Position numbers and translations under genes: made by a program
In this document: positions 7,113-25,273 of the stretch, one piece after another
How the letters are laid out: each line of letters begins with the position of its first letter
How positions within the stretch are numbered: position 1 is the stretch's first letter
DNA from: Candidatus Hermodarchaeota archaeon
GTDB taxonomy: Archaea > Asgardarchaeota > Thorarchaeia > Thorarchaeales > Thorarchaeaceae
Assembly: GCA_048885865.1 (NCBI GenBank)
Contig: JBHLLF010000002.1
Coordinates: 141,070 to 205,069, forward strand
Length of the DNA stretch: 64,000 nucleotides
Direction: 5' to 3'
The notes under the pieces: generated by a model
What the model saw: the letters and a program-made list of their open reading frames with translations, nothing else
Told to the model about the DNA's origin: nothing
The model's database searches: none

Positions 7113-7883
7113 TCATCCCCCAGGGGTGTCAACATCCTTGTACCACTTCTTTGATGTCCCAACTCTAGCTCTCATCTTCCAAGATCTGCCTTTTGGCTTG
7201 TCCTCAATGCTCTGAAGAAGCTCTTCTATTCGAGAACTTGCAACCTCCTTTTCTTGATTATCGAGAACAGTGAACTCACGCATCAATGATGCGACCTTTT
7301 TCAGGTTGGTAGTAACTGTATAATAGAACCCCCATTCCTTGGAGAGTATCTCAGCTATGTAGCCAGCATTGATGGTGTTCTCATCAGTATCGCCAATTTC
7401 GTGAGCTAAAATCAGCATGGTGGTGTCGATAATGTCCTTCTCGCTAATCTTCACAATCTGCATCTTCTGAAGTAGCAATTCTGCAAGAGGAACGGTAGGA
7501 CTATCAATTTCTAATCTCTTCTTATATTCGATCTTATGACACATCTCTAGTCGATCAAGAAAGACATCTATATGTCGCCCATCAGAGTTGTTTATGAAAA
7601 TCATTCTGCCTCCCAATGCAAAGCTAAAAGAGAGCAATCTTCGAGAGTAGTTTTGGCCTTCGAAGAACTTCTCTATTTTGGATGACTGTTTCTCATAGGC
7701 GACATAATCTATGTCAGTGATGAACCTACCCATTTTCTCATGCAGATACGCATATTCTGGGCTGTGAAGTCGAATTGCTATTGCCCCCATGAGTCTAAGA
7801 ATGATTCCTTGTTTGTTCGCCTCCTCGATGATTCTAAGAGCTTCGTCAACAAACACTTGGTGATTTCCTTTCTCTCCTTCCAT
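7113..7883 (-). CDS. Uncharacterised Pol-beta-superfamily nucleotidyltransferase (copy A)
   Basis: LRLMGAIAIRLH...TDIDYV (hG..DxD) and third acidic residue in HIDVF; C-terminal WKMRARVG..KWY. ATG 7883 preferred over the ORF-track start 7907. Confidence 0.75.
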   Translation of the reverse strand: MEGEKGNHQVFVDEALRIIEEANKQGIILRLMGAIAIRLHSPEYAYLHEKMGRFITDIDYVAYEKQSSKIEKFFEGQNYSRRLLSFSFALGGRMIFINNSDGRHIDVFLDRLEMCHKIEYKKRLEIDSPTVPLAELLLQKMQIVKISEKDIIDTTMLILAHEIGDTDENTINAGYIAEILSKEWGFYYTVTTNLKKVASLMREFTVLDNQEKEVASSRIEELLQSIEDKPKGRSWKMRARVGTSKKWYKDVDTPGG

Positions 7884-7929
7884 GTACAACACTTCGAGGA
7901 ATAGCAAATTCCTGGCTTGAATTCTGTAA

Positions 7930-7941
7930 CGTTTAAATATC
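7930..7941. promoter_or_regulatory. TATA-like element in the ~90-bp divergent NTase/phosphoesterase spacer
   Basis: gtttaaatat with palindromic core TTTAAA between the two starts; gaggt SD-like motif before TTG 7974. Confidence 0.45.
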
Positions 7942-7973
7942 TATTTCGGCCGCTGGCTTTGCGAGGTTTAATC

Positions 7974-8924
7974 TTGACCCGCATCTTCTTCTCCTGTGAT
8001 GCTCACGGAAGCGTTCCGGTCCTTCGCAAGATGGTGAAAGTCCACGAGGCCTACAATTGCGATGTTGTCATGATGTGTGGTGACCTCACCGGAAAGGCAG
8101 TTGTGCCTATCGTTGAGGAGAAGCCAGGCGTCTGGTGGTCATCACCGTGGGGACGAAAGGAAACATACAAGTCCGAGAAGGACCTTCAAAGGGCTAAAGA
8201 CATCTATGAGAAACGCGGCTTCTATTGGTTCTTCTCAAATGAGTCGGAACTAGAAGAGCTTCAAGATTCGCCAGAGAAAGTCAAATCCCTTTTTCAGAAG
8301 CTGATGCTTGAGCGAATGGAGTTTTGGATTAATCTCATTGAGGAGAAAGTTCCTAATGACATAATGGTCATAGTGAGTCCTGGAAACGATGATGCAAAGG
8401 ATATTGATGAGCTCATTATGAAAAGCAGTCGGATTACGCAGTCTATCGAAAAAGTTGTTGATCTTGACGATAGACATCAGATGATCTCCTGTGAATGGGT
8501 GAATTCAACGCCTTGGGATACTCCGCGTGAGTGTCCTGAGGATGAGTTAATGGTCAAGCTGGAGACGGAATTTGGTCGAATCAGCACACATGAGAATCTA
8601 GTCTGCAACTTCCATGCCCCTCCGTATGGGACACTGATAGATCTTGCACCAAAACTGGATGACAAGCAACAGGTTAAGGTCCGATATGGAGCTCCTGAAA
8701 TGGTGCCTGTTGGAAGCAAAAGCGTCCGCGAAACCTTCGAGAGATACCAGCCTCTCCTAGGTCTTCACGGACATATCCATGAATCAGTAGGTATGGAACA
8801 CATTGGTCGTACACTCTGCGTCAATCCAGGCTCCGCATACACGCAGGGTATGTTGAATGCATTTGTAATTGATCTGCCTAGGAAGCCAGAAGAAGAGGTG
8901 GTAGCGGTCAGTGTGACAGCTTAG
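7974..8924 (+). CDS. Calcineurin-like (Icc-related) metallophosphoesterase (copy A)
   Basis: CDAHGS, CGDLTGK, PGNDD, NFHAPP, LHGHIHE, CVNPGS. TTG 7974 start inferred from alignment with copy B. Confidence 0.9.
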   Translation: MTRIFFSCDAHGSVPVLRKMVKVHEAYNCDVVMMCGDLTGKAVVPIVEEKPGVWWSSPWGRKETYKSEKDLQRAKDIYEKRGFYWFFSNESELEELQDSPEKVKSLFQKLMLERMEFWINLIEEKVPNDIMVIVSPGNDDAKDIDELIMKSSRITQSIEKVVDLDDRHQMISCEWVNSTPWDTPRECPEDELMVKLETEFGRISTHENLVCNFHAPPYGTLIDLAPKLDDKQQVKVRYGAPEMVPVGSKSVRETFERYQPLLGLHGHIHESVGMEHIGRTLCVNPGSAYTQGMLNAFVIDLPRKPEEEVVAVSVTA

Positions 8925-8941
8925 CGTATTTTGGTGGGTGA

Positions 8942-9640
8942 TTGAAGATGTCCATTGATAGTGGCGAAAGAAGGCGTGCAAAGGGGAAAGCCAAGAGGTC
9001 GCAACCAGGTGAAGTTGATACTGATGATTTACGAAAAGCAATCTACCACATTGACGCCTATCGGTCGCACATCTTCTACAATCTCAGTTTCGTAGAAAAG
9101 ATGGTGGAGCAGGGAACCCTTGGGCGCATATTTGGAGAAAACTGGAAGAAGCTGAGTAGAAGACTCATTAGAATGGCACGTGGTCCCACATCAAATCCCC
9201 ATACTCTTCGTCTTGCACGGTATCAGTCGTATACCGAAGCATTCTGGCAGATAGCAATACCTATTGTCTTCATCTTGCTGATAGTTGGCCTCATCGCACC
9301 GGATATTCCATTTATCAGTACGATTGCCCCATATGTAATGATTGTTGCATTTTCTGCAATGATAATTGGACTTCTCGGAAGATCTCTAATTGGAGCGCGC
9401 ATTGCGAAGAGTATCGATGAATACTTTAAGAATAATCCCGAGGCGCAGCAACTTCGAGTTGAAGAATTGAAATCAGTAGTCCAATTGTTAATCAATGAAC
9501 TGCGACGTGCACTGCATCAATTGAAAGAAGAGCCTGATGAACATCTGGTTGGAATTGGGCTTTTAGACTATAATCACATCGAAGTCGTGAAAGAGCCCAG
9601 GCCCTGGCGGAAATACTACCTAGTGAAGGTTACGTTCTGA
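8942..9640 (+). CDS. Unknown two-TM membrane protein (copy A)
   Basis: Two central hydrophobic helices flanked by soluble regions; aligns with 21275..21982 (D.YR...Y.L.F; DYN.IEV.K.P...RK.Y.VK). Confidence 0.75.
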   Translation: MKMSIDSGERRRAKGKAKRSQPGEVDTDDLRKAIYHIDAYRSHIFYNLSFVEKMVEQGTLGRIFGENWKKLSRRLIRMARGPTSNPHTLRLARYQSYTEAFWQIAIPIVFILLIVGLIAPDIPFISTIAPYVMIVAFSAMIIGLLGRSLIGARIAKSIDEYFKNNPEAQQLRVEELKSVVQLLINELRRALHQLKEEPDEHLVGIGLLDYNHIEVVKEPRPWRKYYLVKVTF

Positions 9641-9815
9641 AGTCTACCTATATCTCATGCTTGGAAATTCTAAGGACAACTGATGAACTTTAAACATAGT
9701 AGTCTACTCATTAAACAAAAACGGGAACTCTTATTACACAGAACACCTCCATTAGCGATTCATCTTCTCTGATTTAAGTTCGGAGGAGGTTAAAAGAAAT
9801 AGAGGGAGAGATTAG

Positions 9816-11396
9816 ATGTCACAAGAAGTACTCTTTCTAAGGCCAACCTCAGGGCTGACCAAGTATTTCGGTACATGGACCTCTCTGTTCGCAATTATTG
9901 GTGCAAGTCTAGGAACGTATCAATGGCTATTTGTTGGTATTCTACAGGATCTCTACCCGGGTATCAATGCCGGCATGACATGGGGAATAGGTATGTTCTT
10001 CATGCTCCTGTATACCCTCATGATGACACTCCTGTCTATGGCCATGCCTCGTTCTTCAGGCCTATACCAAATCTCTGCAAGAGGATTTAATCCAGTTGCG
10101 GGGACAATTGCGGTTTGGCGTGGTATAATAGCCAATCCCATCATCAAGACAAGTGAGTTCTACCTCTTTCTTGTATTCCTGGGCGCTGCATTCGCTCAGT
10201 GGGGCGCAGTTACGAATAATGCCGCAATGCAAGGACTCGGGGCTACCTTCTCCACACAGGAGCCGATGGTACTTGTTTTTGTTTCAATTCTATTAATGGC
10301 GTTATTCTCAGTAATTGCATACTTAGGGCCATTACTCAAGATGGAACCCAGGATACAGATGGCGGGAGGGGTCTTCTCCACAATTGGATGGTTAATGGCG
10401 CTCTTCGTTCTCCTTGGTACTCCAACAACTGCTGTCCAGGGCCGCTGGGATGCAGTTTGGGGTGCAGGAGCGTATACAGAGGTGCAAACAGTGGCCGCTG
10501 CTGCAGGGTATGCAGCACCGGTGTTTAGTATAGAAATGACACTGTTGGCAACGGTGTGGCCTATAGGCCTAACGTGGCCATATCTTATCCTGCTTTATGG
10601 TGGAGAGGTATCAGATCCAGCAAAGAACCTAGTGCTGACTCAGCTTCTGGGTGGGCTAATTCTTGCTGGATTGTTAACAGCAGGTGCTGGACTATTCCAA
10701 GGGGTCTTTGGGACCTTCTCAAGTGAATATGGCGTGGCAGCAGCATCAGGCAACTTGACGCAAACAGGTGTCTTCCAAGGAGGCTTAGGGACATTCACTG
10801 CGGTGTTAGCTGCAAATCCGTTTATCTCTGGATGGATATTACTTTCACCAGTAGTCATCGGACTTACAGCAACTCCAATAAATATGGCGTGGGTCACGAG
10901 AGGATTCTTCCAGGCTTCACTCGACAGAATGATGCCATCCGTCTTCGGCAGGCTCTCGAAGTATCACACACCAACCTATGCAATCCTATACTACTTCCTA
11001 TTTGGTGCTCCGTTTGCATTTGCCTACGCAAATCCAGGGCTAAGTGGCTTCCTGGCCGTAGTCACTTCGCTAGTGGGATTGTGGGGCATCGAGATGCTAT
11101 TCCAGTCAATGGCTGCGTTACAATTGCCCTTCATACGGCGGCCGTTATATGAAGGGAGTATAAGAGCGCAACCTGAGATCGGCGGATTTGCCTTGGTATC
11201 GTTACTTGGCGTAATCATATTGCCAGTATCGTTATTCCTATTGATTGGCTTCTTCCAAGGGGCAGCATTTCTGTCGATCGTCTCGATGTGCGTCCAATAT
11301 GGATTCTCGGCGTTATGGTTTGTGTATTTTGCACGGCGGTTACAGAAGCAGAATATAGACCTCGATGCAATATACACGTCATTATCACCTGAGTAA
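9816..11396 (+). CDS. APC superfamily amino-acid permease (copy A)
   Basis: About 12 TM segments; FLRPTSGL, AMPRSSGLY, GGEVSDP.KN, DRMMPSVF..LSKYHTP, C-terminal IYTSLSPE. Confidence 0.88.
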   Translation: MSQEVLFLRPTSGLTKYFGTWTSLFAIIGASLGTYQWLFVGILQDLYPGINAGMTWGIGMFFMLLYTLMMTLLSMAMPRSSGLYQISARGFNPVAGTIAVWRGIIANPIIKTSEFYLFLVFLGAAFAQWGAVTNNAAMQGLGATFSTQEPMVLVFVSILLMALFSVIAYLGPLLKMEPRIQMAGGVFSTIGWLMALFVLLGTPTTAVQGRWDAVWGAGAYTEVQTVAAAAGYAAPVFSIEMTLLATVWPIGLTWPYLILLYGGEVSDPAKNLVLTQLLGGLILAGLLTAGAGLFQGVFGTFSSEYGVAAASGNLTQTGVFQGGLGTFTAVLAANPFISGWILLSPVVIGLTATPINMAWVTRGFFQASLDRMMPSVFGRLSKYHTPTYAILYYFLFGAPFAFAYANPGLSGFLAVVTSLVGLWGIEMLFQSMAALQLPFIRRPLYEGSIRAQPEIGGFALVSLLGVIILPVSLFLLIGFFQGAAFLSIVSMCVQYGFSALWFVYFARRLQKQNIDLDAIYTSLSPE

Positions 11397-11406
11397 ATCC
11401 ACCATA

Positions 11407-11449
11407 GCCTGAGGACTAACAACCCTCGGGCATCCCCTTCTTTTTTTTT
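11407..11449 (+). terminator. Hairpin plus T9 tract after APC permease A
   Basis: gcctgagg...cctcgggc stem (one G-U pair), then ccccttc and ttttttttt. Confidence 0.6.
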
Positions 11450-11622
11450 GAATTGAATCTTCATGAATATAATATAAGTTAAATCCCAGCGACTATCAGT
11501 CGTTTAAGAAGAACGACTAGAGATATAAGACCCACAGACAATAAGCGAGGTTGCGTGAAGCGTTCAAGCAGCTCACAATTCTGTGTATTCATGCTTGTAT
11601 CATATACAGGAGGAGAAATGAC

Positions 11623-12273
11623 ATGAGTCCCGATATATTCGAGGATTTGGAAAAAGCCGTCATTGAAGGAGATTCTGAGCAATGCGAGGATCTCGCAAAG
11701 AAATCATTGGAGCAAAACATACCTCCCCTTGACGCTATCACCAATGGACTTGCAAAAGGCGTGAAATCTGTTGGAGACAAGTTCAGCAAAGGGGAAGTCT
11801 TTCTGGTTGAGCTAATCATGGCTGGAGATGCCATGAAAGCTGGCATGTCTGTCTTACTACCAGAAATAAAAGCATCCAAGGCTGAGATGAAGACGCTTGG
11901 AAAGGTCATACTTGGTACTGTGGCGGGTGATATCCATAGCATCGGCAAGGATATTGTCGCTACACTTCTAGAAGCAGAGGGTTTTGAAGTGATTAACGTT
12001 GGTGAGGATATTGCCTCTGAGGTATTCGTTGAGAAGGTGAAGGAACACTCACCCGACATATTAGGACTGTCTTCTCTATTGACAGCTACAATGCCAGCGC
12101 AAAAGGAAGTTATCGAAAAGCTAGTTGAAGCTGGATTGAAGGATAAAGTGAAGGTCATTATTGGAGGGGCGCCCACAACCAATGAGTGGGCAGTCGAAAT
12201 AGGGGCTAATGGCTGGGCGGGAGATGCAGTTAGTGCAGTTGAACTAGTGAAGCAGCTGGTAGGCGAGAATTGA
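11623..12273 (+). CDS. Corrinoid (B12-binding) methyl-acceptor protein, MttC/MtbC family
   Basis: Cap domain followed by GTVAGDIHSIGKDIV (DxHxxG), GLSSLLTAT, IIGGAP. ATG 11623 follows an aggag SD motif. Confidence 0.95.
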   Translation: MSPDIFEDLEKAVIEGDSEQCEDLAKKSLEQNIPPLDAITNGLAKGVKSVGDKFSKGEVFLVELIMAGDAMKAGMSVLLPEIKASKAEMKTLGKVILGTVAGDIHSIGKDIVATLLEAEGFEVINVGEDIASEVFVEKVKEHSPDILGLSSLLTATMPAQKEVIEKLVEAGLKDKVKVIIGGAPTTNEWAVEIGANGWAGDAVSAVELVKQLVGEN

Positions 12274-12290
12274 ACTAGAGGTGATATTGC

Positions 12291-13730
12291 ATGTTTAATT
12301 TACTAGGTAGAAACGAAATAGCCGACATCCATGTAGCAGCCATGGAGGTTCTTGAAAATGTTGGAGTAATGGTTCAACATGATAAGGCACTGAAACTACT
12401 CGGGGATGCAGGAGCAGATGTAGATAAGAAGTCCAAAGTGGTGAAAATCCCTGAGAGCCTGTTGCAGGATGCTCTGCAGAAATCGCCTGGAAGGCATTTG
12501 ATGGCATCGCGGAATCCGAAGTACGATTTTGTGATTGGAGATGGAGCGTCATATTATACGAATGCATTTGGAGCTCATTATACTATAGACTTGGAAACGG
12601 GTGAACGAAGACTATCTACACTGAAGGATCTAGAGGAGTTCACACTTCTTGCAGATTACTTCGCAACTGTAGACTACATCAAGCCAAACATCCTTCCACA
12701 AGATGTGTCTAAAACCATCTGGGAACAAGAAATGGCTTTGGCTATGTTCAAAAGTGCTGAGAAGCATCTAAGCTTAGTCGCATTAACTCCTCAGGGGTGG
12801 AGAGATGTGATTAGAATGTCAATGATTGTGGCTGGGGGTGAGGAGGAGTTCATCAAGAATCCATCCTTTATTGATACAGGATTCAATAATGTTCCCCCCC
12901 TCAAGTATACGCCAGAAATCATTGATATGATCCTGGAATGCGCGAAATACAAGATACCATTTGACATCAGTACTGGTGCCCTCGCTAGCGCCAGTGCTCC
13001 AGTTACGCTAGCAGGAACAATAGTGCAGGGGATAGTTGAGAACCACGTAATTGTAGTCCTAACTCAGCTTGTGGGACCTGGTACACCCATTATGTGGGGG
13101 TCCTGCGCAACCATTCTTGACCAACGATATGGGACCGCAGCCTATGGGTCGCCTGAGAATGGACTAATTCACGCGGCGTTTTCCCAGATGGCTCGATTCT
13201 ATGGCATTCCCTACTACGGTGCGGCTGGAGTCATTGACTCAAAGATTCCTGATCATCAGGCCGTATATGAGAACACCATCAATGTACTAGTTGCAACCCT
13301 TGCTGGCGCTGATGTTGTACACGACGCAGTATACGGAATAGTTGAAGCTGGAGTGACTGCTAGCTATGAGTTGTTCGGAATAAGCAATGAAATCTGTGGA
13401 GCCATAAAGCGAATCGCAAAAGGTATGAGAGTGACAAAGGAGACCCTTGCTGCTGATCTTATTGCAGCAGTGGGACATGAAAAGAACTATCTCAATACCC
13501 CAGAAGCATTGAGATTTACAAAGAAGCATCTACTAGAGGAACAATGGCAGCCTGTTTTGACTGAACGGGCTTCCAGACCGGAATGGGAAAAGAGAGGTTC
13601 GAAAGACATGTTCCAGAGGGCAAAGGAACAAGTCAAGGAGATTCTCTCCAGTCATGAGGTTGAACCTCTGGGCAAAGATGTGGAAGCAGAAATGCGGAAG
13701 ATTATAGACAAGAGATCTAAAGGAAAATAG
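12291..13730 (+). CDS. Trimethylamine methyltransferase (MttB) superfamily, non-pyrrolysine type
   Basis: IHVAAMEVLENVGV, SAPVTLAG, PGTPI, GSPE, YGIPYYGAAGVIDSKIPDHQA; no in-frame amber codon. Confidence 0.92.
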   Translation: MFNLLGRNEIADIHVAAMEVLENVGVMVQHDKALKLLGDAGADVDKKSKVVKIPESLLQDALQKSPGRHLMASRNPKYDFVIGDGASYYTNAFGAHYTIDLETGERRLSTLKDLEEFTLLADYFATVDYIKPNILPQDVSKTIWEQEMALAMFKSAEKHLSLVALTPQGWRDVIRMSMIVAGGEEEFIKNPSFIDTGFNNVPPLKYTPEIIDMILECAKYKIPFDISTGALASASAPVTLAGTIVQGIVENHVIVVLTQLVGPGTPIMWGSCATILDQRYGTAAYGSPENGLIHAAFSQMARFYGIPYYGAAGVIDSKIPDHQAVYENTINVLVATLAGADVVHDAVYGIVEAGVTASYELFGISNEICGAIKRIAKGMRVTKETLAADLIAAVGHEKNYLNTPEALRFTKKHLLEEQWQPVLTERASRPEWEKRGSKDMFQRAKEQVKEILSSHEVEPLGKDVEAEMRKIIDKRSKGK

Positions 13731-13743
13731 AAGGAACGAAGGA

Positions 13744-14223
13744 GTGTTAGAGATGGAGGAACCCTCAGCGGACGATGTCAGAAAAGTCGGTATGTCTACA
13801 GTGGCTGCTGCGCATACTGTATATGTTGAAACAGTGAGAAGGCAATTCGGTGAGAAAGGGCTTGAGGCACTTGGCGAGGCAAATCGTCTTCATGGCATAG
13901 AACTGGGAGAGGATGGTGTCAAGAGCGGAGGACTCAGAAAAGGTGATCTAAGGTCTATTTACGAGTTCTTTGCTGCCGCTCATCCTTTCTTTGGATTTGA
14001 ACTAGAGATATCTGACATTTCGGATACTTTACTTGACCTCAAAGTCACTGCGTGTCCATGGATTGACACATTTCGAACAAAGGGTGCCAATGAAGACATC
14101 TGTCACTGGGTATGCAAGATTGACGAAGGCATCGCGCAAGCAGTTGACTCAGACCTCAGCATGACCATTCCTCTTTGCATGATGCGTGGAGATAACTATT
14201 GCATCTATAGATGGCAGAAGTAG
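13744..14223 (+). CDS. ATC-hydrolase/V4R-like small protein
   Basis: VTACPW, ICHWVCKID, CMMRGDNYC pattern. Confidence 0.7.
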   Translation: MLEMEEPSADDVRKVGMSTVAAAHTVYVETVRRQFGEKGLEALGEANRLHGIELGEDGVKSGGLRKGDLRSIYEFFAAAHPFFGFELEISDISDTLLDLKVTACPWIDTFRTKGANEDICHWVCKIDEGIAQAVDSDLSMTIPLCMMRGDNYCIYRWQK

Positions 14224-14396
14224 ACAGCTACCCCTTTCAAAGGAATGCTGGAACACCTAAGAGGCAAATGTGAATCTACATCCACTCCTTTTGGACCTTT
14301 AACATGGTTTAAACCGGAGTGCTTAATTAACCCCGGACCACACTCCTTCGTTAAATCACGGATAGTGAGGTCCGTCCTCAGACTGGAGGTCCTAAT

Positions 14397-16976: not shown

Positions 16977-16984
16977 CTATTGGT

Positions 16985-17275
16985 CTATCCCCCAACTGCA
17001 GCAATCATGAATACAATGAGGTCTCCTCGCGAGAGCTTTGTTTTCTCTCCCTGATGTGCTACCATGTTTTTACCATTCACAATGACAATTGCATCTCTTC
17101 GCAGCTTGCCGCTGCCCTTCTCTTCAAGGTATGGCTCGAATCTCTCCCCATAAGATTCTCGAAGGTCGTCAATCAGGTCTCTGACAGTAGCTCCGTCTTG
17201 AGTTTCAAAGCTGAATTTGTCATGTTCATGTGACTTGAGCCCCTTATTCATGAGTTTGACAAAGACCTCTGTCAT
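16985..17275 (-). CDS. MoaD/ThiS/SAMP ubiquitin-like sulfur carrier
   Basis: GATVRDLI, IVIVNGKN, LSRGDLI, C-terminal AVGG; ATG 17275. Confidence 0.9.
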   Translation of the reverse strand: MTEVFVKLMNKGLKSHEHDKFSFETQDGATVRDLIDDLRESYGERFEPYLEEKGSGKLRRDAIVIVNGKNMVAHQGEKTKLSRGDLIVFMIAAVGG

Positions 17276-17486
17276 GGCATACACTTCCTTAACATTCAAG
17301 TCAAAATAGCCAAAGTTTAAGTTAAGTATGACGGAACAGTCTCTAAGCATGAGGGCATATTAAGCCACCACAAGTGTTTTCAGGCGGTAGCTCTCGTGCC
17401 TACACAAGAGTGATATACCCTAAGCAGGGCTGAATGAAACATCAAACAGGGAACTTGCCATCACCGGCAAAAGAAGGCTGGTCTAA

Positions 17487-18272
17487 TTGACTGAAACGAA
17501 TGGACACCGACTAACATTGAAAGAGTGGCTTGCTGCGCACGCACGTACTGAACCTGTACATTATAGGAAAATTGCTGAGGCTCTTGGTCGTGATGCCGCT
17601 TCAGTTTCTGCATCGCTATCTATTGAGAGAAAACAAGCCGAGGAGGACAATAGACCACCCTATTTCGTTAGAATTCGACCTGGCCTATATCAGTATAATG
17701 ACCTCTGTGAGGGTGCTGTTGATGAGGACCTAATAAGAGAGGTTCGTGATCGTGCAGAAGAGTTCAACCTAGCTACCCGCAGAGAGATGCGACAGAGGAT
17801 TGCTAATCTTGACATCCATGGGTTTGAAGAGCTAGCGAAGATCATTCTACTGAACATCAGGGCCAGAGTCGAGAAATCTGAAGTTATCAGGCGCTACAAC
17901 AACACTATTGTCATGACCACATCTTGGCGAGACGATGGAGGGAGGTCTCCTGTTGTTGTATATGCGAGGAAATGTCGTCTTGACGAGAAGATAGAACGTG
18001 ATACAATACTTGAGATCCGTGGCGCTCTCCCGACCTTCAAGGCCAATCAGGGAGTTCTAATATCGAATGGGATTGTTACCCCTGAGGGGAAGGACGAGGC
18101 TCTAGGCTATGCAGGTGCTGATGTGAAGGTTTCAGTACCTCCTGTCCACCTGATGGACATTGAGATATGCCTTAACATTCTTCTAGAGAGCCGCACCGGC
18201 GTGAGAGAGAGAAAAGTCGAGGTTCTTATCCCGGACGATGAGTTTTGGGAACGTCTATCCACAGAAGAGTAG
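17487..18272 (+). CDS. wHTH (HARE-HTH-like) plus Mrr-like endonuclease-fold protein, catalytic motif degenerate
   Basis: N-terminal VHYRKIAEAL...FVRIRPGLY; C-terminal FEELAKIIL, EIRGAL, QGVLISNG.VT, VHLMD resemble Mrr_cat. Confidence 0.65.
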   Translation: MTETNGHRLTLKEWLAAHARTEPVHYRKIAEALGRDAASVSASLSIERKQAEEDNRPPYFVRIRPGLYQYNDLCEGAVDEDLIREVRDRAEEFNLATRREMRQRIANLDIHGFEELAKIILLNIRARVEKSEVIRRYNNTIVMTTSWRDDGGRSPVVVYARKCRLDEKIERDTILEIRGALPTFKANQGVLISNGIVTPEGKDEALGYAGADVKVSVPPVHLMDIEICLNILLESRTGVRERKVEVLIPDDEFWERLSTEE

Positions 18273-18521
18273 CGTTCCAATCATGAGTCAACACGCATTC
18301 GACTCAGGCCGTCATTTACATCCAAGTTCTACATTAGTCGATGGGATAATACTCAATTCATTGTATAGGTATTGTATTAAATCGCAAAATGTTAACTTTT
18401 TCATAAAGTAGCGCACGAAAGGCGCGCCTTAAGGTTTTAATAGAGGAAATGCGTTACTTCTGGCTCATCACGGAGAGAGATTCACAATTCACCGTGAGAG
18501 AGAAATTTGGAGAAGAACGCA

Positions 18522-20060
18522 ATGGGCGAGGAACAAAAACTCCTATTCGTGCGTGAAAGCTCCGGCCTAGTAAAGGAAGTAGGTACGGGCTTTGCCCTGC
18601 TTCTTCCAATTGCACTAACTCTTGGACCTTGGTTCCACTACTTCGGGCCTCAGGTTTCATCATGGTATCCAGGTGCGCATCTAGTTCCGATGTATGCCAT
18701 CGGCGCAGGAATCGTCTTCTTTGAAGCAATTGCATTGATGTGCCTAATGCTTGCGATGCCACGATCTGGTGCCTCCTACCACTTCACTGGTAGAGGTCTC
18801 AGTCCAATTTTTGGTGTGATGGAAGGTTGGCGGTCCGTAATTACCAATCCTGTATTTAGAGGGACAGGTAGCTTCTTCGCGGTACAGATCTTCGCAGGCG
18901 GTCTCGTAGTTGTTGGTACAGCAACCGGCAACGCTGGTCTTGTTGCAGCAGCGACAGCTCTAGGATCAGACTGGATTCTACTGTTTGTTGCAGCAGCAAT
19001 AATGATCTTTGTAGGATTCATCTTTAGCTATCTCAGCGTAAAATGGTTGGGCTGGTTTACGATAATCCTCGGATTGATCAATATCATAGCGTTGTTAGTT
19101 GCTGATCTTGTTATGCTAGCGACTCCCATTACTCAGTCAGTTTGGGAGGGTACAATGGGCTCAGGTACCTGGGCTCCGATCGCTGCATTCGACAACTCAG
19201 CCTATGTCGACTTTGACTGGGCAGCTGTGGGCCCTGCTTTGATTCTAACCGTTGGTGGAATGTGGCCTTACCTTATTATGCCAGTAGCAGGTGAAGTGGC
19301 ACAGCCAAGTAGAAACATCCCCTTGAGCAATCTGGGTGGATGGGCTGGTATCGCCTTCTTTTTCATGCTCTCAGGCTTCGCAGTTGAGTCAAGCATGGGA
19401 GCCGACCTGTATGGCATCAACTTCGCTGGAGGCGTATTCCCAGGATTTGGTAACTATGCAGCAGTCATTCTTGGAGCCAATCCGTTAGCGTGGTTCGTGA
19501 TATTATGTCCGGTCTATGCGAGCGTGTTAGACTCACCGAGCAATGCACTGTGGGTTACCCGACCAATGCATTCCATGGCTATGGACCGGTTCTGTCCTGA
19601 AGCATTCGCAAGTGTCCATCCGAAGTACCATGTTCCACACATTACATTGTACTTCTGGTTGATTCTATCACTTGGAACAGTAGCCTTCGCTACATTCCTA
19701 GTAATTACAACCGGCACTGCTCTCGACGCACTGATTGGCGTAGCATTCACCTACGTCTTTATCAGATGGCAGATGGCACTGGCTGCGGTATCATTACCGT
19801 ACTACAGGCCAACATTATGGGAGCGAAGCGGAGCGTGGAAGTTCCTGGGCATTCCACTGATATCAATCGGTGGTCTGGTTGCAGGCGGCGCATTCTTCTA
19901 TTCTATGATAGCATTCGTACCAGGTGGTGCCGCTTACGAGGTCTGGTTCACTGTGATCGTATACGTGATTGGTCAATTAGCCTACATGTACTACGGTGCT
20001 AAGAACAAGGCCAAAGGCATCGAGATGTCTGCTATCTTCGGACAGCTTCCGCCAGAGTAG
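18522..20060 (+). CDS. APC superfamily amino-acid permease (copy B)
   Basis: FVRESSGLVKE, AMPRSGASY, AGEVAQPSRN, MDRFCPEAF..VHPKYHVP, C-terminal IFGQLPPE. Start is ATG 18522 or TTG 18507. Confidence 0.88.
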   Translation: MGEEQKLLFVRESSGLVKEVGTGFALLLPIALTLGPWFHYFGPQVSSWYPGAHLVPMYAIGAGIVFFEAIALMCLMLAMPRSGASYHFTGRGLSPIFGVMEGWRSVITNPVFRGTGSFFAVQIFAGGLVVVGTATGNAGLVAAATALGSDWILLFVAAAIMIFVGFIFSYLSVKWLGWFTIILGLINIIALLVADLVMLATPITQSVWEGTMGSGTWAPIAAFDNSAYVDFDWAAVGPALILTVGGMWPYLIMPVAGEVAQPSRNIPLSNLGGWAGIAFFFMLSGFAVESSMGADLYGINFAGGVFPGFGNYAAVILGANPLAWFVILCPVYASVLDSPSNALWVTRPMHSMAMDRFCPEAFASVHPKYHVPHITLYFWLILSLGTVAFATFLVITTGTALDALIGVAFTYVFIRWQMALAAVSLPYYRPTLWERSGAWKFLGIPLISIGGLVAGGAFFYSMIAFVPGGAAYEVWFTVIVYVIGQLAYMYYGAKNKAKGIEMSAIFGQLPPE

Positions 20061-20073
20061 AACGCATTTCATT

Positions 20074-20112
20074 TGAAGAGAGCCGCAAGCTCTCTTCACC
20101 CCTCTCTTTTTT
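20074..20112 (+). terminator. 10-bp perfect hairpin plus pyrimidine/T tract after APC permease B
   Basis: tgaagagagc-cgcaa-gctctcttca followed by a C/T-rich tract ending in a T run. Confidence 0.7.
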
Positions 20113-20150
20113 CGCGTCTCTCAGTAGCCAAAAGATAGCTGAATCATCAT

Positions 20151-21119
20151 CTAGGAAATGGCGCTATCATCATTTTCCTCTGATTCCTGAGGCTCTTCTT
20201 CTGCAAAATCGTATATGGGCGGAAATCGATTTCTGCTTGCCTTGCTTGAAAATGCTTCCAGCTTGTCCCACGATTTGTGAAAACGCGAAGGGAAGGATCT
20301 AGGTCTGATTGCTAGTACCTCCTCAATATCATCTGAGGATCTGTAGATATCGAGCGCTTTCTTGGCATCCTCCACAATTCGCTGTCGCTCTTCATCATCG
20401 AGCACCTGCTGTTGATATTGATAGGCATCCTCATGCCATTGGTATTTTATCGAGAACTCTTGATGATCATTGAAGATGCTATCAATAAGCCTCCAAGGCC
20501 AGAACGTGGCCATCTGAGCAAGTTGCACACCGGCACCGTAGAAGTCTATTGCCATTCCCTCTTTACAGAAGATATAATCGGGGCCTCGCTCCCGAAATTT
20601 TGGATTTGGCTTAGCCATACGCCCTCTCTTTGACCAATCGAACCACTGTGCCCTATGGCGTCCAACGACCTCGCACTGGTTAATAATGTATCTGACTGCT
20701 GCGGCAGTACCATGATGTGCCAATCCCGGTAGACTCGGACGTTCAAGAATCCCCTCAACCAGCTCCTTTACAGTTGCCACATCCTCCAATGGAAATGTAG
20801 CCCAGACTGGAAAAACTGCACGTCCATATGGCATCGAAAACAGAAACAGCATCCCTGCAGGTCCAATTGGCTCGAAGTCATCAGGAAGTTCCTCATACAT
20901 CGGCCACGTTTTATCATCCTTACAGTAATGCACTTCACAGACTTCAAAGGATACTACCTCACTCCAACCGGCGTCATATGTAGCTAGATACTTCTTCCTT
21001 CTTTTTTCGCGAGGAAGAACGAATCTTGCATACTCTGAATTGATTTGGAGCTCCTGTTTGTCGTCATAAGGATCAGTACCAAGATATTCAAGGTCTGGAA
21101 GTCTGTCATATGTACTCAT
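20151..21119 (-). CDS. Hypothetical soluble protein
   Basis: 322-aa ORF filling the gap between genes; no motif recognised. Confidence 0.7.
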   Translation of the reverse strand: MSTYDRLPDLEYLGTDPYDDKQELQINSEYARFVLPREKRRKKYLATYDAGWSEVVSFEVCEVHYCKDDKTWPMYEELPDDFEPIGPAGMLFLFSMPYGRAVFPVWATFPLEDVATVKELVEGILERPSLPGLAHHGTAAAVRYIINQCEVVGRHRAQWFDWSKRGRMAKPNPKFRERGPDYIFCKEGMAIDFYGAGVQLAQMATFWPWRLIDSIFNDHQEFSIKYQWHEDAYQYQQQVLDDEERQRIVEDAKKALDIYRSSDDIEEVLAIRPRSFPSRFHKSWDKLEAFSSKASRNRFPPIYDFAEEEPQESEENDDSAIS

Positions 21120-21274
21120 CTTTAGTAAATCCCCATGAATAAGCGCGAGTCGGTTTGAGAGTTATTTGAATCTCCTGCCAGCCCATTCTTAAACAAGCTG
21201 GTATATGCCCGCAAGTTAATCGTAAACATTAATTAGCTGTATTCGCGAGCCAATCGCTAAGAGGACTTGGTAAG

Positions 21275-21982
21275 ATGAGTCACCGGGGAAAGCAAGATAA
21301 AAAGGTAAAGCGGCCATCATCAGTATCGCTTGACGATTTCCAATTCACTCCCGCGAATCTGGATTTGAGATTCAGCAAGAATCTATTGACAGTGTTGGAT
21401 GGCTATCGAATTCAGAGAACATATGACCTGGGCTTTATCGATAAGAAAGTTGGAGAAGGAGAATTGCCTAGGACTTTCGTTCAGCAGTGGGGAACCATGA
21501 GGAAGGCTCTCACCAAGCTCGCTGCCATTGGCCCAAAAGTCCCTGGAGTTGAGTCCTCGCTGAATCGTAGGCAGACAATGTCCTTCATTGGGATGGCTTC
21601 ACTCACCATTGCAGTTCCAATTCTGCTATTCACTTACGTATTGCAGCTTGATTGGCTAGCACCTATTGGCTTACCAATTGCCCTTGTTGCAGTCGGCTTA
21701 ATGCTAATCAGCTGGATGACTTCAGCCTGGTATAATAGAAAGGTTGCATGGTTGATTCATGACTATGTAGAAGAGAATCAAGCATTGGTATCCAACGAAA
21801 GGCGGCACCTCAAGAAATGGGTCCAAATACTGATAATGCACACATCAAGTCTTATGCGAAAAAGCGGTGAGGATCCCGAGAAGAATCTTGTCAAATTCTT
21901 TAATGACGACTATAATGGAATTGAGGTATTGAAAGTTCCAAGTGGTTTCCGGAAGCACTATGTCGTCAAAATTAGATTGTAA
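21275..21982 (+). CDS. Unknown two-TM membrane protein (copy B)
   Basis: Paralogue of 8942..9640: LDGYRIQRTYDLGF, two TM helices, DDYNGIEVLKVPSGFRKHYVVKI. Confidence 0.75.
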   Translation: MSHRGKQDKKVKRPSSVSLDDFQFTPANLDLRFSKNLLTVLDGYRIQRTYDLGFIDKKVGEGELPRTFVQQWGTMRKALTKLAAIGPKVPGVESSLNRRQTMSFIGMASLTIAVPILLFTYVLQLDWLAPIGLPIALVAVGLMLISWMTSAWYNRKVAWLIHDYVEENQALVSNERRHLKKWVQILIMHTSSLMRKSGEDPEKNLVKFFNDDYNGIEVLKVPSGFRKHYVVKIRL

Positions 21983-21987
21983 GAAAA

Positions 21988-22015
21988 GGGACTCGATTTG
22001 CCCTGAATCGAGCCC
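21988..22015. terminator. Hairpin between convergent genes
   Basis: ggg-a-ctcgatt / aatcgag-ccc inverted repeat, A-rich on one side and T-rich on the other. Confidence 0.45.
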
Positions 22016-22029
22016 AGTAGTTTCAGTTT

Positions 22030-23145
22030 CTATACAAGATCTTCCATAGGCTTATAGTCAAGGTCAAAGCCGAAATGACGTGGGCCTAAAACCTTCAAAC
22101 CTTCAGTGCTACGAAATACCTGTTCTGATTTCATTCCGATTACACTGACCTGGTCACCGGCTTTGATGTCTGTGTTTGTTATTGGCTCACCAGATTTTGC
22201 ATCAATTATCTCAATAATGTCCGGACTCATGACCCAAGGTTTGTCATCAAGCCATGTGACATGATTCTCATTCTTGAACCAGACTCGAAGCTCAGACCCG
22301 GGCCTAATACCACTTCCCTTGATCTTAGTTTCGCCCCACATGTAGCCTGCCCGGTTCTCCCATGTCTTATCCACGACCTCTCCCCGGAAGAGAATCCAGC
22401 CTCCTACATTTTCAACAATCTTGTCAGCAGGATCATCGCCCGTGTCACGACTCTCTCTAATCATCTTGCCAACTTCATAGCTTTTAGTCAGTGTTCCTGG
22501 GATAATTGCATCATGGAAATCCGAGCCTTTCAATGGAAAAGCAACATTTCCCAACCTTCCCCAGGCAGCTTCACTGAGTGCCTTGGAGATTCGCTCACCC
22601 ATCTCAAAGTTGATGACATGTTCTACTATGCTCTTGTTACCAAACCAATCGATAAGAGCCATTGGTGCCATCGAGAACCCCTTGATGCATACTGTGTTCT
22701 GGCAAATCTCTGGAACTGCTCTTGCTGAATAATCTCCGTCAACACATGGAATGCCGTGTTTCACAGCTGAATCTATTGGTGCTGGCGTATTCACTCCTCC
22801 AAGCTCAAATGGAGCCACCGCCGCGAACTTTACTCCCATATGGTCCTCTAACGCTTTGAGACCCGCAGCTAGTTCTTGCTCATAGTAGTCCCAAGGAAAT
22901 CGAGTTCTCAACGCCTCAATTTCTGGAGTAGGAGGTGCGATAGTCCCTGAATAGTAAGAGCAAGCAACCCAGTCATCATTCTTCACGTGCCCCACGTCAA
23001 CAATCTCTATTGTCTTCCCCGCATCCATGTGAGGATAAAGCATATCGAGTCCGAGCTGCTTTGAGCCGCCCCCGCCAGTTCCAAAGAATGTGCATCCGGT
23101 GGTGAGGTCGTCTACATCGGTCCTCGTTTTTAATATCAAAGTCAT
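22030..23145 (-). CDS. DUF917 family protein (copy 1)
   Basis: GCTFFGTGGGG, PFELGGVN, VDGDYSARAVPE, FKNENH, SPDII. ATG 23145 preferred over 23262. Confidence 0.9.
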   Translation of the reverse strand: MTLILKTRTDVDDLTTGCTFFGTGGGGSKQLGLDMLYPHMDAGKTIEIVDVGHVKNDDWVACSYYSGTIAPPTPEIEALRTRFPWDYYEQELAAGLKALEDHMGVKFAAVAPFELGGVNTPAPIDSAVKHGIPCVDGDYSARAVPEICQNTVCIKGFSMAPMALIDWFGNKSIVEHVINFEMGERISKALSEAAWGRLGNVAFPLKGSDFHDAIIPGTLTKSYEVGKMIRESRDTGDDPADKIVENVGGWILFRGEVVDKTWENRAGYMWGETKIKGSGIRPGSELRVWFKNENHVTWLDDKPWVMSPDIIEIIDAKSGEPITNTDIKAGDQVSVIGMKSEQVFRSTEGLKVLGPRHFGFDLDYKPMEDLV

Positions 23146-23267
23146 ATTAGTCCCAATCCCATTAAAGTGACTTAAACAAGAATTATGCTTGGCTCTATAT
23201 ATTTCCAATGGACTAAAAACAAGGTTGGAAGGAAGGCGCAAGTGCACCTTCCTCTCCGACATCAGAG

Positions 23268-24209
23268 CTAAAGCTCTACTCGTCCCGCTTGGACATTTCC
23301 ATCTTCGATGGTGATGAGGAATCCTTTCAAGATGCCCTCTCTGTACTCTGAGCCTGGGTTAACACAGAGCGTTCGCCCAATCTTTCTGTATCCCACACTT
23401 TCATGGATATGACCATGCATGCCCAATAATGGCTGATACTTCTCAATCACTGCTCGGACTGATTTGCTACCAACTGGTGTCATAATCTCATGTGCACCTG
23501 CCTTTGCAACACGATGGTCCTCAGTCAACTGAGGTGCTACATCGAGTCCTGAGTTGAATGGAGGGTCATGAAAGTTGCAGAGTACGTTTGAGTAATCATC
23601 TGTTTCAAGACGTGCAAATTCTGCTTCCAGCTTGTCCAGCAGCTCCTCATCAGGACATTCTCTGTGAGTGTTCCACGGTGTGGAGTTTACCCATTCCAGA
23701 CTTATCATGGGATATCCATGAATGTCAACAACTCTCTGTAGAGGATATATGATTCTCTCGTCATTCTTTATTACTTCATCAATGACATAGTCGTCATCAT
23801 TTCCTGGATTCACAACGACCATTACGTCTTCAGGTATCCGTTCATTAGCCATGTGCATCCATTCCTGAATTCTCTCCACCATTAGTCTTTCAAAGAGCTT
23901 GGTGATCTCTCCAGGCGTTTCCTGAAGATGCGCCAACTCATCCGGTGTAAGTATTGCTGGATAGAACCCCTCGTCCTTAGTGAACTTGATGAATTTGTCA
24001 AGATCCTTTTGCTTCTTGAAGGTCTTCTTTTGGCCTCGGGGGTTGGCATACCATCTGTCTTCTTTCTCTTGTATAATCGGCATGATGGCTTTCCCGGTTA
24101 GGTCGCCGCACATCATCGCTACGTCTGCTTTGAACGCCTTTGGTGCCCGACACATTTTCTCCCAGGTCTGTTGGCTTCCGTGTGGGTCACAGGCTTGGAA
24201 TATCCTCAT
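23268..24209 (-). CDS. Calcineurin-like metallophosphoesterase (copy B)
   Basis: CDPHGS, CGDLTGKA, NPGNDD, NFHDPP, MHGHIHES, CVNPGS; long blocks near-identical to copy A. Confidence 0.92.
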   Translation of the reverse strand: MRIFQACDPHGSQQTWEKMCRAPKAFKADVAMMCGDLTGKAIMPIIQEKEDRWYANPRGQKKTFKKQKDLDKFIKFTKDEGFYPAILTPDELAHLQETPGEITKLFERLMVERIQEWMHMANERIPEDVMVVVNPGNDDDYVIDEVIKNDERIIYPLQRVVDIHGYPMISLEWVNSTPWNTHRECPDEELLDKLEAEFARLETDDYSNVLCNFHDPPFNSGLDVAPQLTEDHRVAKAGAHEIMTPVGSKSVRAVIEKYQPLLGMHGHIHESVGYRKIGRTLCVNPGSEYREGILKGFLITIEDGNVQAGRVEL

Positions 24210-24430
24210 CTAATTACCTCGTAATCGTTTCTGCGTTGTGAACTCCTCAGAGTCCCAGACGAATTGTCGATGTGACAGTTTAGCCTTGTTTAAAGTTTAA
24301 TGGTGCAACACATTTTGCAGCTTAAGGAGATTTAGAAAAAAAGGAGTCTGTGCCATGTCACAAGATATTAATGTCATATGAAACATCGCAGGTGTAATAA
24401 GACCCTTGAATTCTAGAGGAGTACAGAGAT

Positions 24431-25231
24431 TTGAATGGGAAATATGGTCCAATTCTAGATGACTTCATGGAGGAAGCAATGCGGATTGAGAAAGCAGCTG
24501 CTGAAATGGACATTCCACTTCGCCTTATTGGCTGTCTTGCATTTAGGTTGAAGAGTCCGGAATATACAGACCTCCATATCAAGATGGGAAGAGAGGTCAC
24601 GGATATTGACTTCATAAGCTACTACAAGCATCAGAAGAAATTGCGGAATCTGTTCAGAGATGAACTAGGGTACCACTGGGTTCCTCCCGGATTTGCTCGT
24701 GCTAGCACATTGAGAGACCTCTTCATCGATGTTGAACGTGAACGCAAGGTAGATGTCTTCTACGATCACCTTGAATTTTGTCATAAGATTGATTTCAAGA
24801 AGAAAGACCGACTAGAGGTGGACCAACCCACAATTCCATTGGCGGAGCTATTCCTAGAGAAGACGCAGATAGTCGAGATCAATGCCAAGGACTTGAAGGA
24901 TCTAATCATTACTTTCCTTGCCCACGATGTAAGTACTCAAGATGATGACACTCAGGTCAATGGCAAGTACATAGCAAAGATGCTATCGGATGACTGGGGA
25001 TTTTACTATACTGTGACGGAGAACCTCAAGAAGTTCTTCGACTTCGTACCCACCGTTCCGGAAATCACTGAGGAGCAAAAGGAGATAGTGTTGTCCAGAG
25101 CCAAGAAGCTTCATCAGATGATTGAGGAGGAACCGAAATCAGGGTCTTGGAAGCGTCGAGCAAAGGTTGGTCCTAAGCAACGCTGGTATAAAGTAGTTCA
25201 TTCAATGGAAGGAACTAGGAACGCAGACTAG
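24431..25231 (+). CDS. Uncharacterised Pol-beta-superfamily nucleotidyltransferase (copy B)
   Basis: LRLIGCLAFRLKSP...TDIDFI, KVDVF, LEFCHKI, PTIPLAEL, WGFYYTVT.NLKK, WKRRAKVG...WY. Confidence 0.75.
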   Translation: MNGKYGPILDDFMEEAMRIEKAAAEMDIPLRLIGCLAFRLKSPEYTDLHIKMGREVTDIDFISYYKHQKKLRNLFRDELGYHWVPPGFARASTLRDLFIDVERERKVDVFYDHLEFCHKIDFKKKDRLEVDQPTIPLAELFLEKTQIVEINAKDLKDLIITFLAHDVSTQDDDTQVNGKYIAKMLSDDWGFYYTVTENLKKFFDFVPTVPEITEEQKEIVLSRAKKLHQMIEEEPKSGSWKRRAKVGPKQRWYKVVHSMEGTRNAD

Positions 25232-25273
25232 TTTCCGAACATTCCGCATAGGCAATCATTGGAGAGAGATGCA

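Follow-up and report, generated by a model that had tools for sequence, protein, structure and literature searches.

What would four unrelated gene families do together if an archaeal genome keeps each of them exactly twice, with both sets lying almost side by side? The question arises from a stretch of 64,000 nucleotides of Candidatus Hermodarchaeota archaeon (assembly GCA_048885865.1, contig JBHLLF010000002.1, positions 141,070 to 205,069; the whole of it is called the window here), which encodes two copies, A and B, of a nucleotidyltransferase (NT), a metallophosphoesterase (MPE), a protein with two transmembrane helices (2TM), and an APC-superfamily permease (APC). The two sets are described here as anciently diverged versions of a conserved uptake unit whose core comprises three genes, and it is tentatively proposed that NT and MPE run a cycle of nucleotidylation and de-nucleotidylation on a component common to all such modules and so gate uptake. 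Many carriers of the unit are members of uncultured lineages that are abundant in sediment and soil (Thorarchaeota and further Asgard archaea, Bathyarchaeia, Anaerolineales, and Thermoleophilia), in which it adjoins genes for the uptake and degradation of methylated amines and other nitrogen-rich compounds, and no family model exists for two of its four proteins. Should the pair control or complete uptake, it would represent a new mode of secondary-transporter regulation, a handle on the diet of these organisms, and a function for the structural orphans TT1561 and aq_1956 and for an un-modelled branch of the NTase fold.

Two gene sets within 18 kb

The open reading frame (ORF) list of the window places four families, two copies apiece, inside 18 kb. 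All eight ORFs proposed in an initial annotation of this DNA were found at their coordinates, and the starts proposed there for NT_A (ATG 7883), MPE_A (TTG 7974), and APC_B (ATG 18522) fit the homologue alignments. The two modules consist of the following features, with the basis of each in brackets.

7113..7883, minus strand: NT_A, Pol-beta-fold nucleotidyltransferase, 256 amino acids (aa) from ATG 7883 (ORF, AlphaFold2 model, invariant residues)
7884..7973, no strand: divergent spacer between NT_A and MPE_A, 90 bp (starts from homologue alignments)
7974..8924, plus strand: MPE_A, calcineurin-like metallophosphoesterase (PF12850, 33.8 bits, cut-off 27)
8942..9640, plus strand: 2TM_A, 232 aa, a central two-helix membrane hairpin with soluble N- and C-terminal domains (hydropathy)
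9816..11396, plus strand: APC_A, divergent APC-superfamily permease (PF13520, 20.8 bits, below cut-off; homology to APC_B)
11352..11393, plus strand: signature C-terminal tail of APC_A, ...DLDAIYTSLSPE (tail consensus)
18522..20060, plus strand: APC_B, APC-superfamily permease, whose ORF opens at TTG 18507 (PF00324, 55.4 bits, cut-off 24.6)
20016..20057, plus strand: signature C-terminal tail of APC_B, ...GIEMSAIFGQLPPE (tail consensus)
20151..21119, minus strand: orphan gene of 322 aa inside the B-type module (ORF; orthologues in B-type modules)
21275..21982, plus strand: 2TM_B, two-helix membrane protein, 235 aa (homology to 2TM_A)
23268..24209, minus strand: MPE_B, metallophosphoesterase (AlphaFold2 model)
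24210..24430, no strand: divergent spacer between MPE_B and NT_B, 221 bp (ORF coordinates)
24431..25231, plus strand: NT_B, nucleotidyltransferase (identity to NT_A; catalytic residues invariant)

The claimed paralogue pairs are genuine and diverged in all four families, as pairwise BLASTP gave 46% identity for the NTs (E 8e-77), 50% for the MPEs (E 1e-113), and 28% for both the 2TM proteins (E 3e-24) and the permeases (E 2e-46). The whole assembly (3.58 Mb in 117 contigs, 87% complete) holds exactly two copies of each family and none outside the 18-kb stretch. Close homologues carry names that place this genome in Thorarchaeota, an Asgard lineage. By our own arithmetic, random placement would give such clustering with a chance of about 1e-16; the clustering of all eight genes cannot be due to chance. 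The head-to-head arrangement of NT and MPE is present in both copies of the window, as had been described, across spacers of 90 bp (A) and 221 bp (B), but it does not extend to the family as a whole, in which 51 of 93 pairs are divergent, 35 lie on the same strand, and 7 are convergent.

The gene trees separate the two sets: A-type and B-type modules of Thorarchaeota form one clade each in the NT, MPE, APC, and 2TM trees, and each of the four splits the A type from the B type. In the NT tree, the A type is nearer to sequences from Bathyarchaeia, Chloroflexota, and Actinomycetota, and the two types lie far apart, from which it follows that the copies are old paralogues or separate acquisitions and not the products of a recent duplication. 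The B-type order, namely APC, the 322-aa orphan, 2TM, DUF917, and then MPE head-to-head with NT, is found in at least 13 genomes of the family. In one relative (G137), the A and B modules lie 14 kb apart, as in the window.

A triad conserved in archaea and bacteria

Profiles of the four families were searched against the mechanically called ORFs of 80 genome loci and 20 further Asgard regions; the 80 loci were the best-scoring ones for an A-type query, and the census is therefore biased toward relatives of copy A. There are at least 590 NT loci among the GTDB species-representative genomes. Where the NT gene had at least 6 kb on each side, MPE and APC were both found within 8 kb in 48 of 53 cases, and the gap between NT and MPE had a median of 95 bp. 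Modules are carried by Thorarchaeota, other Asgard archaea, Bathyarchaeia, Anaerolineales, other Chloroflexota, Thermoleophilia, and other Actinomycetota, with gene order and orientation varying between Thorarchaeota, Bathyarchaeia, Chloroflexota, and Thermoleophilia. Linkage of the families in other genomes, on which the initial annotation had made its proposal depend, thus holds in both domains.

Co-occurrence points the same way. Across 151 sampled Asgard genomes, which are related rather than independent and whose counts carry no formal statistic, NT, MPE, and the permease co-vary: NT is present in 62, MPE in 64, and both in 61, and the APC subfamily is present in 48, accompanied by NT or MPE in 47 of them. 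Copy numbers of NT and MPE track each other per genome (7/7, 4/4, and 4/4), and two families in this sample, f5 with 13 genomes and f9 with 25, have none of NT, MPE, and the APC subfamily. The two enzymes also occur as natural fusions in four protein clusters of 578–580 aa, with NT N-terminal and MPE C-terminal, and one such fusion adjoins an APC that ends in IPPD.

The conserved core is the triad of NT, MPE, and permease, and the additions to it are lineage-specific, because the three are linked widely, whereas 2TM is limited to some lineages. Among the additions, a protein with four CBS domains (4xCBS) is encoded by the gene that immediately follows NT in 23 of 25 Chloroflexota loci, and most bacterial loci have a choline-kinase/APH-like gene together with a DeoR regulator. 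In one metagenome-assembled genome, an AlaX-like gene with tRNA-synt_2c, tRNA_SAD, and DHHA1 domains lies between the 2TM gene and MPE (L142:901-2211, minus strand); its presence in the module matters only if NT acts on tRNA. The initial annotation had named no characterized system of this composition, and literature searches on NT with MPE, permease, and MttB, on AbiEii/MenT with a permease, on PF14907, and on TT1561/aq_1956/PF14582 gave no description of the unit either.

The nucleotidyltransferase

The NT sequence has no match in Pfam, NCBIfam, or PDB, the PDB search having returned just a chance hit to a designed TIM barrel. Its AlphaFold2 model, built on 30 homologues, is confident (predicted local distance difference test, pLDDT, 91.7; predicted template modelling score, pTM, 0.90), and the N-terminal 160 residues form a Pol-beta nucleotidyltransferase fold according to VIA-align, with which Foldseek agrees at a probability of 1.00. 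The top match in VIA-align is ANT(2'') (Z 12.6, 154/175 residues), then MenT1 (Z 12.4, 170 residues aligned), LnuA (Z 10.3), MenT3 (Z 9.6), MenT4 (Z 8.9), TUTases and Pol beta (Z 7–8.6), the alarmone synthetases Rel, SpoT, and SAS (Z 6.7–7.8), and cGAS-type/CdnC-type chains (Z 6.2–6.7). The Pol-beta fold with intact catalytic acids was thus confirmed by model and fold comparison. A likeness to CD-NTases was not: against the Z of 12.6 for ANT(2''), CdnC, cGLR, and CdnE are among the fold matches solely at Z 6.2–6.7 or at a low Foldseek rank, and PADLOC, CD-NTase models included, gave no match for NT, although a distant relationship is conceivable.

G33, D57, D59, and D106 are invariant in two sets of 30 and 27 diverse homologues, and the catalytic motifs claimed for both enzymes (hG..DxD..D in NT, and those of MPE) proved invariant across about 27–30 of them. 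The second Gly/Ser of the hG[GS] motif is instead a nearly invariant Ala34, and the Ser/Thr that is auto-phosphorylated in MenT toxins presumably matches G-A-x-A in NT. The C-terminal part is helical and family-specific, with invariant basic and aromatic residues, and keeps across homologues a K..Q..KDxxD helix, which may resemble the C-terminal motif of DUF1814 NTases. The nearest Pfam family is PF14907 (NTP_transf_5), to which 21 of 30 members show a sub-threshold match (E 0.0011 at best) and the NT of the window scores 12.5 bits (gathering cut-off 31.2); PF08843 (AbiEii/MenT, DUF1814) gave no match in the 30 members at E up to 1. More than 1,500 NT homologues are on record in the protein collection searched, and NT_B has orthologues of 59–82% identity in 18 other genomes of the same family.

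The sampled Asgard genomes also encode a second, more distant NT subfamily with 29–35% identity to NT_B and no matching extra MPE copy (for instance, G103:C3:33452-34174, G037:C116:104260-104955, and G001:C1:902472-903197). A metagenomic protein of 708 aa (P0133) joins a distant NT relative (26% identity, PF14907) to Fic_N and Fic domains, so that one protein holds two different nucleotidyl-transfer domains. Several Asgard NT homologues have an in-frame TAG (G012:C1:1911169-1911876, G041:C7:130387-131163, and G034:C134:6475-7029) and could be broken genes or cases of pyrrolysine read-through; their genomes also encode methylamine methyltransferases.

The metallophosphoesterase

Five metal motifs are invariant in 27 MPE sequences: D7xH9, G34D35, G135N136D137D138, H213, and G265H266xH268, the third of which reads GNDD and not GNHD/E. 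MPE_B scores 24.9 bits against PF12850, below the cut-off that MPE_A exceeds, and its sequence search against PDB gave nothing useful, with aq_1956 at E 0.61. The AlphaFold2 model of MPE_B (pLDDT 95.2) has its top fold matches in aq_1956 (Z 22.9) and TT1561 (Z 22.1) in VIA-align, followed by MPPED2 (Z 18.6), Mre11 (Z 18.2), and GpdQ and Rv0805 (Z 16.7). The 50 best rows in VIA-align or Foldseek are phosphodiesterases, nucleases, and nucleotidases, and the PPP-type phosphatases (PP1, calcineurin, and lambda) are not among these 50. Motif alignment and fold comparison of the model accordingly bear out the claim of an intact dimetal site and group MPE with phosphodiesterases. PADLOC matched the MPEs to an unnamed candidate model, PDC-S10, and to nothing else. 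Both NT and MPE look active: their catalytic residues are invariant, the fold of NT is nearest to ANT(2''), MenT1, and LnuA, and that of MPE is nearest, after the uncharacterized aq_1956 and TT1561, to phosphodiesterases and nucleases. A search for longer MPE fusions returned one protein of 607 aa (P0134), a lone MPE homologue fused to an SMP-30/gluconolactonase-like domain (PF08450), and no other informative architecture.

The permease, the 2TM protein, and the orphan gene

The APC permeases have 11 hydrophobic segments in a crude hydropathy scan. No solved relative of APC_B is detectable in PDB by sequence, and NCBIfam gave nothing for APC_A and chance or far-below-cut-off matches for the 2TM proteins and APC_B. 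The module permeases have a median pairwise identity of approximately 22%, yet they share motifs at both termini: F-x-R-x-x-[ST]-G-L-x-[RK] at the N-terminus and, in archaea and bacteria alike, a C-terminal tail of approximately 14 residues with the consensus G-I-[DEN]-h-x-x-[AI]-[FY]-x-[EQ]-[LIV]-P-P-E. The PPE end is present in 55 of 84 module permeases and a close P-x-E-like variant in about 79 of 84; the tail of APC_A ends in SPE and that of APC_B in PPE. In this genome, the tail is confined to the two module permeases and missing from a third APC-like gene, which lies on another contig, and APC_B is the sole ORF of at least 100 aa that ends in PPE. The APC topology with about 12 helices places both termini in the cytoplasm, and the conserved ends of the module permeases are predicted to be cytoplasmic. 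A complex prediction that combined NT_B and MPE_B with the C-terminal 34 residues of APC_B scored 0.00 in two runs with no controls and counts neither way.

In 2TM_A, hydropathy places the helices at about residues 104–122 and 128–146, and the family keeps D38, R41, D209, Y210, R223, and Y226 invariant. All of its 266 representative clusters are stand-alone proteins, and PADLOC gave no match for 2TM. The initial annotation had treated the 2TM protein as a general component, which it is not: it was seen solely in Thorarchaeota, in 6 of 27 Bathyarchaeia loci, and in some metagenomic contigs of a few lineages, and a hydropathy screen of loci that lack it found no hidden two-helix analogue beside NT. 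The 322-aa orphan is a single-copy gene in this genome and is without a match in Pfam, NCBIfam, PADLOC, and PDB. Each of the 13 B-type modules fetched has a full-length orthologue between APC and 2TM, and two more matches are cut by the ends of their loci; the orphan may be a fifth component specific to the B type.

A proposed nucleotidylation cycle to gate uptake

What, then, would the two enzymes do for the permease? The initial annotation had read them as a possible writer and eraser, which is plausible. In the cycle that is tentatively favored here, NT would spend a nucleoside triphosphate and attach a nucleotidyl group by a phosphodiester bond to a hydroxyl of its target, and MPE would hydrolyze the bond thus made. 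The target would be a component common to all modules, most likely a protein of the unit itself, with the cytoplasmic face of the permease, the 2TM protein in Thorarchaeota, and the 4xCBS protein in Chloroflexota as candidates. Import of the nitrogen-rich solute by the permease would depend on the balance between the two activities, and the solute would differ from module to module. The data establish the genes, their folds, their intact active sites, their linkage, their co-inheritance, and their fusion; the opposition of NT and MPE, the identity of the target, and the effect on transport are inferred.

The NT–MPE fusions and the 1:1 copy numbers argue that both enzymes work on the same bond. 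Their target is probably a shared component rather than the transported solute, because NT and MPE are far better conserved than the permease (median pairwise identity of 0.42, 0.40, and 0.22, respectively) and because the flanking catabolic genes differ widely between modules. The kinase and MttB genes of bacterial loci, moreover, are already explained by a pathway of phosphocholine demethylation, that of Eubacterium limosum, in which MthB demethylates phosphocholine and not choline (Jiang et al., 2025; PMC12155760). A more specific version, in which the nucleotidylation switch acts directly on the secondary transporter, through its conserved cytoplasmic termini or through a small membrane or CBS adaptor, is conceivable but doubtful. 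If that version is true, it would give the first nucleotidylation-gated APC permease and an ancient control device of Asgard archaea, Bathyarchaeia, Chloroflexota, and Actinomycetota, reused for many nitrogen-rich solutes.

Several points weigh against such a cycle. The conserved aromatic position of the tail is more often Phe than Tyr and therefore cannot be the general acceptor, and the enzymes nearest to NT in structure have small molecules (ANT(2'') and LnuA) or tRNA (MenT1) as substrates, not proteins. To our knowledge, no metallophosphoesterase serves as a protein de-nucleotidylase. The argument drawn from the conservation of NT and MPE relative to APC is weakened by the generally faster divergence of membrane proteins compared with soluble enzymes. 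The accessory proteins (2TM, CBS, and choline-kinase-like) depend on lineage, so no single adaptor can be named.

Alternative explanations

The same gene content might serve metabolism, with NT nucleotidylating whichever small molecule is imported, or a moiety found in all the solutes, so as to trap or activate it, and MPE later freeing the nucleotide part. Small-molecule adenylyltransferases are among the best folds for NT (ANT(2'') at Z 12.6 and LnuA at Z 10.3), MPE resembles GpdQ and MPPED2, the unit invariably stands among catabolic genes, bacterial modules combine a choline-kinase-like gene with MttB, and activation before demethylation has a precedent because MthB takes phosphocholine, not choline (PMC12155760). 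However, nucleotidylation followed by hydrolysis of the same bond would be a futile cycle, and bacterial modules already have an activating kinase; NT and MPE remain approximately 40% identical across modules whose neighbors, and with them the probable solutes, vary widely, and copy B and most Bathyarchaeia contexts point to no common hydroxyl-bearing substrate, so that a metabolic role seems rather unlikely. The probability is lower still for a messenger pair, in which NT would make a signaling nucleotide, MPE would degrade it, and a CBS, 2TM, or permease-terminus receptor would gate uptake. CBS domains are established adenine-nucleotide binders, and the 4xCBS gene, as the next one after NT in 23 of the 25 Chloroflexota loci, would suit a receptor, but these proteins are confined to Chloroflexota and provide none that is common to all modules. 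The NT–MPE fusions mirror bifunctional synthetase/hydrolase enzymes, and MPE is akin to the cyclic-nucleotide phosphodiesterase Rv0805 and the AMP/GMP-binding MPPED2; the alarmone synthetases, in turn, are among the weaker fold matches of NT (Z 6.7–7.8), CD-NTase, cGAS, and RelA-type chains together reach Z 6.2–7.8 against 12.4–12.6 for ANT(2'') and MenT1, and PADLOC gave no CD-NTase match.

A third class of explanation takes its cue from MenT/AbiEii, in which NT would extend or block the 3' ends of tRNA or other RNA and MPE would trim them as an enzymatic antidote, either as a toxin–antitoxin or defense pair or as a brake on translation tied to amino-acid supply. MenT1 is the co-best fold for NT (Z 12.4 over 170 residues, with MenT3 and MenT4 at 9.6 and 8.9), NT may share a C-terminal helix motif with DUF1814 NTases, the MPE model has two nucleases, Mre11 and SbcD, as well as the debranching enzyme Dbr1 among its structural neighbors, the copy number per genome is variable and patchy, and one module holds the AlaX-like tRNA-editing gene. 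In both domains, the pair nevertheless keeps company with a permease and catabolic genes, the Ser/Thr that MenT toxins auto-phosphorylate presumably corresponds to G-A-x-A in NT, the B-type order is stable across the whole family, unlike mobile toxin–antitoxin or defense loci, there is neither an AbiEi/MenA-type partner nor a PADLOC or PF08843 match for NT, and a fused toxin and antidote at a constant 1:1 dosage would be odd; this explanation is accordingly held to be very improbable. Least credible is the view that NT, MPE, and the permease are merely co-regulated neighbors with separate roles, given the fusions, the near-identical phyletic patterns, the matching copy numbers, and a linkage that outlasts many rearrangements across two domains.

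Relation to known systems

The unit is a member of none of the systems with which it was compared, and its nearest functional analogue is GlnD/GlnK/AmtB. There, too, a Pol-beta-fold nucleotidyltransferase and a removing hydrolase are genetically tied to a nitrogen-source transporter, and writer and eraser can share one polypeptide. However, GlnD has an HD domain as its eraser where the unit has a metallophosphoesterase, it modifies a PII protein, for which no gene was found in the module loci examined, and its transporter is Amt and not APC. NT lacks ACT domains and is not similar to GlnD in sequence, so the likeness is functional only; an HD domain, an ACT domain, a second NTase domain, and a PII gene were all absent from the loci examined, which differ in this from the GlnD/GlnE architecture. 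RelA/SpoT resembles the unit in having an NTase-like synthetase fused to or paired with an opposing metal-dependent hydrolase, a logic that the NT–MPE fusions share, but its hydrolase is an HD domain, and NT resembles Rel, SpoT, and SAS just weakly in fold (Z 6.7–7.8). GadC is an APC-family antiporter with an autoinhibitory C-terminal tail, the C-plug, and the module permease is likewise an APC-superfamily transporter with a conserved, predicted cytoplasmic C-terminal segment that may have a regulatory role; there is no sequence similarity between the two, and the permease tail is short (approximately 14 residues, ending in PPE).

For MPE, the closest relatives are TT1561 (1uf3) and aq_1956 (2yvt), structural-genomics proteins with no assigned function, which match it over the whole catalytic core (Z 22.1–22.9). 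The MPEs are 50–80 residues longer, carry extra helical sequence inserted between GD and GNDD, and score 23.5 and 18.5 bits against PF14582, the family of TT1561 and aq_1956, below the cut-off of 28.2. NT shares with MenT/AbiEii (DUF1814) an hG, DxD, D core followed by a helical C-terminal domain, but it has no PF08843 match and approximately 70 extra C-terminal residues with invariant W, K, and R positions of their own, its partners are MPE and a permease, and its gene order is stable rather than mobile. No AbiEi/MenA antitoxin gene was seen beside NT in more than 100 loci, in which the neighbors were MPE, APC, and catabolic genes. [quoted passage not shown] PsmN, an unclassified ANT(2'')-like NTase of lasso-peptide tailoring, works with a kinase and decorates the phosphorylated C-terminal Ser of a peptide (PMC6993621). 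By analogy, it may be an intriguing lead, because module permeases have a conserved tail and bacterial modules encode a kinase.

Catabolic neighbors and likely solutes

The context claimed for the two copies holds, with a corrinoid protein and MttB after copy A and two DUF917 genes and a racemase flanking copy B.

11551..13730, plus strand: corrinoid protein and non-pyrrolysine MttB-family methyltransferase of the copy A context (PF02310, PF02607; PF06253, E 1e-95)
22030..23262, minus strand: S-Me-THD-like (DUF917) gene between 2TM_B and MPE_B (PF06032, PF20906)
25259-26392: second S-Me-THD-like/DUF917 gene beside copy B (PF06032, PF20906)
26441-27208: hydantoin-type racemase beside copy B (PF01177)

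The MttB-family gene itself (12291-13730, plus strand) scores 439 bits against TIGR02369, the pyrrolysine-type model with a cut-off of 525, and has no in-frame stop, on which grounds it is of the non-pyrrolysine type; judged from its family, its product probably acts on a quaternary amine. ATC_hydrolase-like genes lie on either side of this region (6553-7071 and 13744-14223), the context of copy A also includes an MtaA-like gene, and MttB/corrinoid neighbors recur in A-type loci elsewhere. Because of these MttB and corrinoid neighbors, the solute of copy A is probably a quaternary amine. For copy B, where thiohydantoin desulfurase models match the DUF917 genes weakly, the solute is probably a hydantoin-type or amino-acid-derived compound.

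Elsewhere, the neighbors are choline kinase, MttB, and DMGDH-like oxidases in bacterial modules, and amidohydrolases, aminotransferases, and M20 peptidases in those of Bathyarchaeia. Modules of Anaerolineales (e.g., L038:8987-17285) lie inside a larger island, which at that locus comprises a DeoR regulator, two choline-kinase-like genes, two DAO-GCV_T (dimethylglycine-dehydrogenase-like) genes, MttB, a PfkB kinase, and an aminotransferase. From its gene content, the island looks like a complete choline/phospho-base demethylation route that would extend MthK/MthB. A CDP-choline (Kennedy/Lic-type) reading of the choline-kinase-like link was considered and rejected, as MthK/MthB explains that link better (PMC12155760) and the link is absent from archaeal modules.

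Between the two modules of the window lie a ThiS-like gene (16985-17350, minus strand) and an Mrr_cat restriction-endonuclease-like gene (17487-18272, plus strand). Farther out, a long ORF at 3-2180 on the minus strand runs off the start of the window, and an aldehyde:ferredoxin oxidoreductase gene is located at 29556-31475 on the minus strand.

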